DNA of 64,000 bases from Glaucostegus cemiculus (taxonomy: Eukaryota), in NCBI GenBank assembly GCA_976551045.1, contig CDPCPM010000012.1:6758001-6822000 (forward strand), written 5' to 3'. The translations under genes and the position numbers were made by a program. The first letter of the stretch is position 1, and each line of letters starts with the position of its first letter. The notes beneath the pieces were generated by a model. The model had not been told where the DNA came from, did no database searches, and saw only the letters and a program-made list of their open reading frames with translations. Shown in pieces: positions 48,001 through 48,676 of the stretch.

Positions 48001-48676
48001 CTAATTCTCAGGGCAATCTGACAGATGGTAACCATGCAATGCAAAGCAGAAGCAAAAAAGTAGCAAGCAAAAGCTCTTACTGTGCAAATTGTTCATCAAA
48101 GCTTTCATCAGGGTAGTATTTTCGAGGACGGCCTCGTTGAATATGGCGACCACGTTTAAATTCTTCATCATCAACAGTCCAAAAGGACCCAAACTCATCC
48201 TCTACTCTGATAAAGCACTTATGCAGTGACAAATTGGTGCGTATGGCACCCTGGGATTATAGCAGCAGTCAAGCAGATGCGATGGAAAGACAAACAAGGG
48301 CAATGGGATTTGGGAGAGAACAAAAATCACACACAAGGGTTGGGTAAGGAAAAGGAGAAAAAAAAATGAAATAAGCAAATGATTTGTGGGGTTAATATGT
48401 GTAGCCTGCAAGCAGAAGCATATGATGCAGAACACTAGGCAAGCAGATGGAAAGGACACGGGGTGGGCACCATGGCATACACAGACTGGAAAACAAGGGG
48501 AAAGGACCCTGTGACAAAGCACTTGCTTTCCATGCCCCACATTTTCCTAGGCAACAAGAATATAACCAAGCAACACCCTTCCCTCCATCACCTGCAAGCA
48601 GCCATAAGCTGTAAGTTAAACTACAGGGGAGCTAGCTATGCTAGGAGGTTTAAGCAATTAAATATGGTGGACATAC
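48001..48676 (-). promoter_or_regulatory. Intronic splicing-regulatory region around exon 18b (YGCY cluster, UGCAUG, long AG-exclusion zone)
   Basis: About 16 YGCY in 48251-48676 and 5 in 48001-48080 on the transcribed strand (manual count). TGCATG at 48033-48038. No AG between 48253 and 48405. Confidence 0.7.
48081..48250 (-). CDS. FOXP1: FOXP1 alternative mutually exclusive forkhead exon 18b (FOXP1-ES type, 170 nt): [56 protein letters not shown](Q)
   Basis: Open frame between acceptor atcccag (AG at 48251-48252) and donor ACA|GTAAGA (GT at 48079-48080). Same phase (0 to 2) as exon 18 and clearly paralogous to it. Matches the recalled human exon 18b peptide and length. Confidence 0.95.

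Follow-up and report, generated by a model that had tools for sequence, protein, structure and literature searches.

An intact B-type forkhead exon in FoxP1 of a ray-like cartilaginous fish and a decayed counterpart in FoxP2 of the same genome

FoxP1 is known to carry a second forkhead exon, exon B, which was described in mouse, human, and zebrafish and which the phylogeny in PMC3002244 identifies as the homologue of the B exon of insects. The same source dates the exon pair to the base of Bilateria, as does PMC8373072 for the FOXP1 event, the latter listing no such event for FOXP2 or FOXP4. For FoxP2, FoxP3, and FoxP4, PMC3002244 inferred a degeneration of the exon, having found no trace of such splicing in these genes. 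The bilaterian isoform B (PMC3002244), exemplified by Drosophila FoxP-iB (PMC7776582), shares with the vertebrate form its origin, a tandem duplication of the second exon of the forkhead domain, and the replacement of His by Thr. The fly protein, however, keeps the Asn and has its B exon in the last position, whereas the vertebrate form also replaces Asn by Gly and is an internal cassette.

The closest described system is human FOXP1 exon 18b, or mouse Foxp1 exon 16b (FOXP1-ES; Gabut et al. 2011). The base contacts made by Asn and His and a structural model of the changed DNA binding are presented in PMC3002244. In human cells, according to the review PMC11701043, the protein made with exon 18b favors CGATACAA-like sites instead of GTAAACA, and the exon helps to maintain pluripotency. 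MBNL1 was described as the dominant repressor of human exon 18b (PMC8189919 and PMC13044900), and direct MBNL binding to the introns flanking this exon was reported in PMC4978528.

We analyzed one stretch of 64,000 nucleotides from Glaucostegus cemiculus, here called the window, which contains part of a FoxP1 gene with both forkhead exons (Table 1). A shark RefSeq FoxP1 protein, XP_072328365.1 of Scyliorhinus torazame, aligns to the window exon by exon and joins exons 17, 18b, and 19 exactly. The initial annotation had named the exon an orthologue of FoxP1 exon 18b/16b, and it is indeed found within the FoxP1 orthologue, between exon 18 and exon 19. The peptides of exons 20 and 21 together are identical to sawfish FoxP1 at all 102 residues and to skate at 100 of 102, followed by three sharks (94 to 96/102), a chimaera (88/102), and six bony vertebrates (67 to 78/102). 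As the highest identities are those to sawfish and skate, the DNA belongs to a cartilaginous fish, as had been proposed, and probably to a ray.

The frames at positions 30638-31111 (+), 8057-8645, and 4354-5202 of the window resemble LINE-type reverse transcriptase fragments when judged by eye. Such fragments are usual in genomes of this sort.

Table 1. Positions of the FoxP1 features in the window, of the FoxP2 relic in its contig, and accessions of shark isoforms with the same B peptide
Feature	Position or accession	Strand	Remarks
FoxP1 exon 17	55482..55583	-	3' end at 55482
FoxP1 exon 18 (18a), A form, 122 nt	48677..48798	-	Canonical recognition helix with Asn and His
Intron between exons 18 and 18b, 426 nt	48251..48676	-	YGCY rich; AG-free stretch before the acceptor
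FoxP1 exon 18b, B form, 170 nt, 56 codons	48081..48250	-	Gly1 and Thr5; basic tail with RGRP core at residues 39-42
100 nt directly downstream of exon 18b	47981..48080	-	Five YGCY and one TGCATG
FoxP1 exon 19, common downstream exon	44647..44716	-	Entry in phase 2
FoxP2 exon B relic	G000:C142:1115467-1115634 (L002:1501-1668)	+	Intron after exon 18a
Scyliorhinus torazame B isoforms X2 and X6	XP_072328365.1, XP_072328361.1		56/56 residues
Chiloscyllium punctatum B isoforms X1, X4, and X9	XP_072438656.1, XP_072438668.1, XP_072438674.1		56/56 residues

The G. cemiculus genome holds four FoxP genes. Contig C142 carries FoxP2, with an exon 20 that is 91% identical to chimaera FoxP2 and an exon 18a that ends in FoxP2-type residues. 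The genes on C141 and C895 we take to be FoxP4 and FoxP3-like, respectively, going by diagnostic residues together with tblastn. C895 is a small GC-rich contig, and the last forkhead exon of its gene (G000:C895, about 48086-48204 (-); L021:3086-3204) shows a one-base frame change in the assembly, which may be an assembly error or a true lesion. The published accounts that we draw on differ on FoxP3 in sharks, which is given as lost in PMC11998571 and as present in PMC6238376. Exon 18a of FoxP1 (window 48677-48798 (-)) and that of FoxP2 (G000:C142:1114968-1115089 (+)) are identical at 111 of 122 positions, compared to 99 to 100 of 122 for exon 18a against the FoxP4-type gene. The likeness between FoxP1 and FoxP2 in this exon may reflect a shared sequence-level constraint, such as splicing signals, or gene conversion.

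Exon 18b is an open exon of 170 nt (48081-48250 (-)) flanked by AG and GT sites, the acceptor reading CAG and the donor GTAAGA, and frame 1 is its sole open frame, with stops in the other two. The peptides that the initial annotation quoted for exons 18 and 18b match ours, and its proposed junction coordinates are correct, with exon 17 ending at 55482 and exon 19 starting at 44716. The two alternative exons are in the same phase, as 122 and 170 both leave a remainder of 2 when divided by three, and they are separated by an intron of 426 nt. A frame test on the exons keeps the reading frame open through exon 20 with either exon 18 or exon 18b alone, whereas with both included the first stop lies 47 nt into 18b, and with both skipped it lies in exon 19, 55 nt from the start of that exon. 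The initial annotation had also remarked on CGN arginine codons being kept in CpG-poor surroundings. The count itself holds, six of the seven arginine codons in 18b being CGN in a window with an observed/expected CpG ratio of 0.18, but the argument is weak on its own because the neighboring constitutive exons also keep such codons (2/3 in exon 15, 2/3 in exon 17, and 3/4 in exon 18a).

The 56-residue peptide of exon 18b scores 23.7 bits (E value 5e-5) against the Pfam Forkhead family, which is below the cutoff of 27. Gly and Thr stand at the positions of the DNA-contacting Asn and His of exon 18, in line with the first description of this locus. With human exon 18b, the exon shares the gene, the position, the length of 170 nt, the phase, the helix changes, and 52 of 56 residues, and the identity to the macaque peptide is likewise 52/56. 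The differences from the human exon are four residues in the tail and the length of the preceding intron; the human exon lengths are 122 and 170 nt and the intron, calculated from the coordinates in the supplement of PMC8373072, measures 374 nt. Among solved structures, the search yielded 23 forkhead-family matches, none of which, compared by name, is FOXP1-ES. The FoxP1 exon 18b is in itself already known, and the locus is one more lineage for a published switch. The initial annotation had dated this switch to at least the jawed-vertebrate ancestor, which is too cautious, underestimating the published origin at the base of Bilateria (PMC3002244 and PMC8373072).

A protein search with the 18b peptide resulted in 157 matches at an E value of at most 0.001 among 159 candidates, which together with the Pfam score speaks against a chance resemblance, and the following homologue counts refer to the best 120 of these 157. 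The B-type helix is present in 111 of the 120 listed homologues, ranging from mammals to gar, sturgeon, and teleosts. Among the listed carriers of this helix, 34 of the 56 positions are at least 98% invariant, with the variation lying mainly in the last 12 residues. Five shark RefSeq isoforms from two species are identical to our peptide at all 56 residues, so automated pipelines have already annotated this isoform in sharks. They differ from the locus studied here in being automated models from sharks, whereas the window comes from a ray-like fish. Of 92 listed proteins with chondrichthyan names, for which two clusters contributed their best 15 of 44 and best 15 of 19 members, five are B type, 85 are A type, and two are neither, and no B isoform from a ray or chimaera is among these 92. 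The B isoform is therefore probably rare or stage limited. The purifying selection that had been suggested for 18b is supported in a protein-level comparison, the peptide being identical in three elasmobranchs and matching 52 of 56 human residues. Inclusion of 18b in the ray-like fish is likely, judging from orthology and from the automated RefSeq models of sharks. Among 24 sequencing runs listed in a run search, 23 of which contain part of the stretch, none of those containing it is recorded as RNA.

The surroundings of 18b are rich in YGCY, described as the MBNL motif (PMC13044900). The intron between exons 18 and 18b contains 16 YGCY, where the window as a whole would predict 4.4 (Poisson p 1e-5), and at least 16 were found in 0.3% of 2543 sliding windows. 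The 100 nt following 18b contain five, where 1.0 is expected (p 0.004). The flanks of 18b hold nine YGCY upstream (200 nt) and five downstream (100 nt), against one to three and zero to two for seven other FoxP1 exons, some of whose boundaries are approximate, and pyrimidine-rich tracts also raise YGCY counts. These flanks fit a predicted control of 18b by MBNL in the ray-like fish, like that of human FOXP1 18b.

Upstream of the 18b acceptor, 155 nt are free of AG, with a candidate distant branch point near -145. Steric exclusion, which needs roughly 50 nt, was rejected as the basis of exclusive use, since some 280 nt separate the donor of exon 18 from the candidate branch point. Exclusivity based on docker/selector RNA structures was rejected for the first 130 to 140 nt of the intron, which fold no better than shuffled sequences (z +1.8 for FoxP1 and +0.4 for FoxP2). 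With neither steric exclusion nor a fold at the intron start, we infer a regulated choice combined with decay of the out-of-frame products. Between FoxP1 and FoxP2, the alignment of the whole intron is no better than chance (z 1.1; 49 of 300 shuffles), and the flanks of exon B reach marginal values of z 2.2 to 2.5 (nine and seven of 300 shuffles), compared to -1.6 to 1.1 for five control flanks.

The search of the fish's own genome with the 18b peptide gave five matches among 15 candidates, the second best of which lies in FoxP2, at G000:C142:1115467-1115628, and contains two stops, one TAA and one TAG. This relic begins where an exon B would be expected, 377 nt downstream of exon 18a of FoxP2. 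It lacks one codon and, over 165 nt, has an identity of 73% to 18b. Its local alignment score is 199, where shuffled sequences reach at most 86, it matches a profile of 54 B peptides with an E value of 1e-13, and it is single copy in a DNA search of the genome. Both splice sites are lost, the acceptor AG being replaced by TT and no GT being present at the donor position. Fifteen of 33 invariant residues have changed, and the B-diagnostic Gly1, Thr5, and RGRP are retained. Exon 18b has six CpGs and the relic two. Through the loss of one codon, a CAG now stands some 30 nt from the start of the relic. As the first AG behind a long stretch of pyrimidines, it might serve as a cryptic acceptor, with a stop soon after it.

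Local alignment, tblastn, and the 54-peptide profile revealed no exon B relic in FoxP4 (50 kb of C141) or in the FoxP3-like gene (40 kb of C895), where the local alignment score of 71 falls within the shuffles (mean 63 and maximum 76). Intact FoxP2 exons of type B did not appear in the protein searches either. The relic peptide gave one candidate and no match in a word-indexed protein search, which covers annotated exons, and among 1.84 billion representatives it matched only five FoxP1-B-type proteins, at 49 to 55% identity. The B helix is found in none of 84 listed FoxP2-type proteins. All of these are weak negatives, since the chondrichthyan FoxP2 proteins listed are eight from a single chimaera and protein searches see annotated exons only. 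We found no published description of a FoxP2 exon B relic in the open-access literature.

The relic and 18b differ at 14, 12, and 19 sites in the three codon positions, giving a dN of 0.26 (bootstrap 0.17 to 0.37), a dS of 0.81 (0.39 to 1.8), and a dN/dS of 0.32 (CI 0.12 to 0.72). Taken together with the lesions, this ratio indicates that the FoxP2 exon stayed under coding constraint for some while once the two genes had parted, and that it decayed afterward. FoxP1 and FoxP2 were placed as separating at the first vertebrate genome duplication, based on synteny (PMC11998571). For a rough clock, we took the neutral decay of the relic as its dN less 0.04, the value for exon 18a, and a rate of 0.6 to 1.1 x 10^-9 per site per year from the dS of 0.061 to 0.111 between whale and zebra shark over about 50 million years (PMC13100897). 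The estimate, drawn from only 55 codons and from a rate for two sharks rather than rays, would put the death of the relic at 200 to 350 Ma, or 115 to 540 Ma with the bootstrap range, and the figure of 7 x 10^-10 per generation obtained from a pedigree (PMC10587355) would push it older. As the split of cartilaginous fishes from other jawed vertebrates is given as about 450 Ma (PMC6238376), the central date possibly falls inside the cartilaginous-fish lineage, and the full range also covers the genome duplications. The broken copy suggests that FoxP2 likely kept the switch long after its split from FoxP1.

We regard it as an even call that the jawed-vertebrate ancestor had the switch in both FoxP1 and FoxP2, and that the FoxP2 exon B was still working into the cartilaginous fishes and was lost about 200 to 350 million years ago, separately from the loss in bony vertebrates. 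The competing explanation, to which we give somewhat less credence, is that the relic is not a late-dying ohnologous exon, but arose by gene conversion or copying from FoxP1 to FoxP2, or died right after the genome duplications and was preserved by a slow clock. Over a tract of 64 nt with 13.3 synonymous sites, exon 18a is identical in the two genes (clustering p 0.0016), and its pS of 0.29 is low compared to that of four other exons (0.69; Fisher p 6e-4), both of which speak for an exchange, as does an Ile common to chondrichthyan FoxP1 (67/77) and FoxP2 (7/7) where other vertebrates have Val or Leu. The upper age bound of about 540 Ma, taking in the duplications, is likewise compatible with an early death. 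However, exon 18a of FoxP2 still ends, on its 3' side, in residues diagnostic of FoxP2, and the relic sits where an ohnologous exon is expected. A recent block copy would require the intervening intron to align, which it does only at chance level, and a dN/dS below 1 shows that coding constraint lasted for some time beyond the separation of the copies.

Turning to FoxP1, we consider it highly probable that the window holds an intact second forkhead exon, which likely replaces exon 18 under predicted MBNL repression, giving a protein whose preferred DNA motif is predicted to differ. Judging from mammals, exon 18 would be the default, MBNL on the flanking YGCY clusters would exclude 18b, and 18b would be used where MBNL is low, as in the early embryo, in progenitors, and perhaps in the germ line. 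Products with both exons or with neither would likely be removed by nonsense-mediated decay, and the B protein would prefer CGATACAA-like over GTAAACA sites. The history would be that of a bilaterian tandem duplication, retained in FoxP1 and decayed, yet visible, in FoxP2 of the same genome.

Where the exon is used is less clear-cut. The initial annotation had described 18b as marking the embryonic stem cell isoform of human and mouse, and the link to stem cells stands for human cells (PMC11701043), whereas the B form is not confined to them, having been detected in adult mice in six kinds of tissue or cell (PMC3002244). A strictly stem-cell use does not fit this presence of the mouse B form in many adult tissues. 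In the developing mouse cortex, the B form was not regulated (PMC8989529). There is a fair chance, though one below even, that 18b is a real coding alternative unrelated to pluripotency in cartilaginous fish, serving as a neural or broad minor isoform, with the stem-cell role arising later in mammals. The fly isoform B, found only in neurons and in about 65% of the FoxP neurons (PMC7776582), points in the same direction as the mouse tissues. This explanation shares all of its sequence evidence with the MBNL-repressed alternative exon described above and differs from it only in the place of use. Against it, MBNL-type motif clusters occur in the ray-like fish, and MBNL also represses stem-cell exon programs in planarians (PMC4978528), suggesting an old, progenitor-linked control.

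We think it very improbable that 18b persists chiefly for regulation, as a poison cassette whose inclusion together with exon 18 would lower FoxP1 levels through the stop 47 nt into 18b. Eight of the 120 listed database models hold both helices, though mostly as automatic predictions, but the constraint follows the frame of single inclusion, with 34 of 56 residues nearly invariant across the vertebrates listed, which a poison exon would not need. Least probable of all is a silent 18b in G. cemiculus that is intact only through the slow evolution of cartilaginous fishes, for which the very low shark synonymous rates cited above (PMC13100897) and the missing ray B isoform among the listed proteins could be adduced, since the FoxP2 copy in the same genome has neither splice site left, has acquired two stops, and departs from 15 of the 33 invariant residues, whereas FoxP1 18b is unchanged compared to two shark orders. 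The dead FoxP2 copy thereby provides a neutral control in the same genome, arguing that the FoxP1 copy was kept by selection.

The basic tail of the B peptide may add to the altered DNA reading. An RGRP core is present in the B tail of 117 of the 120 listed homologues, and RGRP is described as the consensus core of the AT-hook (PMC8476142). The core scores 12.8 bits (E value 0.12) against the Pfam AT-hook family (Pfam ID PF02178), not reaching the gathering score of 17.4 bits, and scans of full-length B proteins gave no AT-hook match. Similar to an HMGA-type AT-hook, the tail combines the RGRP core with basic flanking residues, a pattern that is legible in the FoxP2 relic as well; it differs in its score below the Pfam cutoff, its single copy, and the lack of a Pro before the core. 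Two Xiphophorus FoxP1-B isoforms (P0112 and P0113) lack the core and are the sole full B-type exceptions among the 120 listed homologues. Searching by title or abstract, we found no literature linking an AT-hook to FoxP1 isoform B, and an earlier mention is possible. That exon B also adds an AT-hook to the forkhead domain seems less likely than not. Speculatively, the core could make an AT-hook-like contact with the minor groove and compensate for the two lost base contacts.

Exon 18b confirms a published, half-billion-year-old splicing switch in another lineage, and the YGCY-rich flanks and the RGRP core offer specific handles on the control of this switch and on the DNA binding of a B protein that has lost both base-reading residues. 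The FoxP2 relic represents a physical trace of duplicated genes shedding an alternative exon after whole-genome duplication. It is datable with more cartilaginous-fish genomes, and bears on the question of whether the much-studied FoxP2 once had a second mode of reading DNA. If the late loss in cartilaginous fishes is true, the dead copy would be direct fossil evidence of a loss that was previously only inferred, and a FoxP2-B exon that is intact or in a less advanced state of decay may survive in some chimaeras or early-branching sharks.
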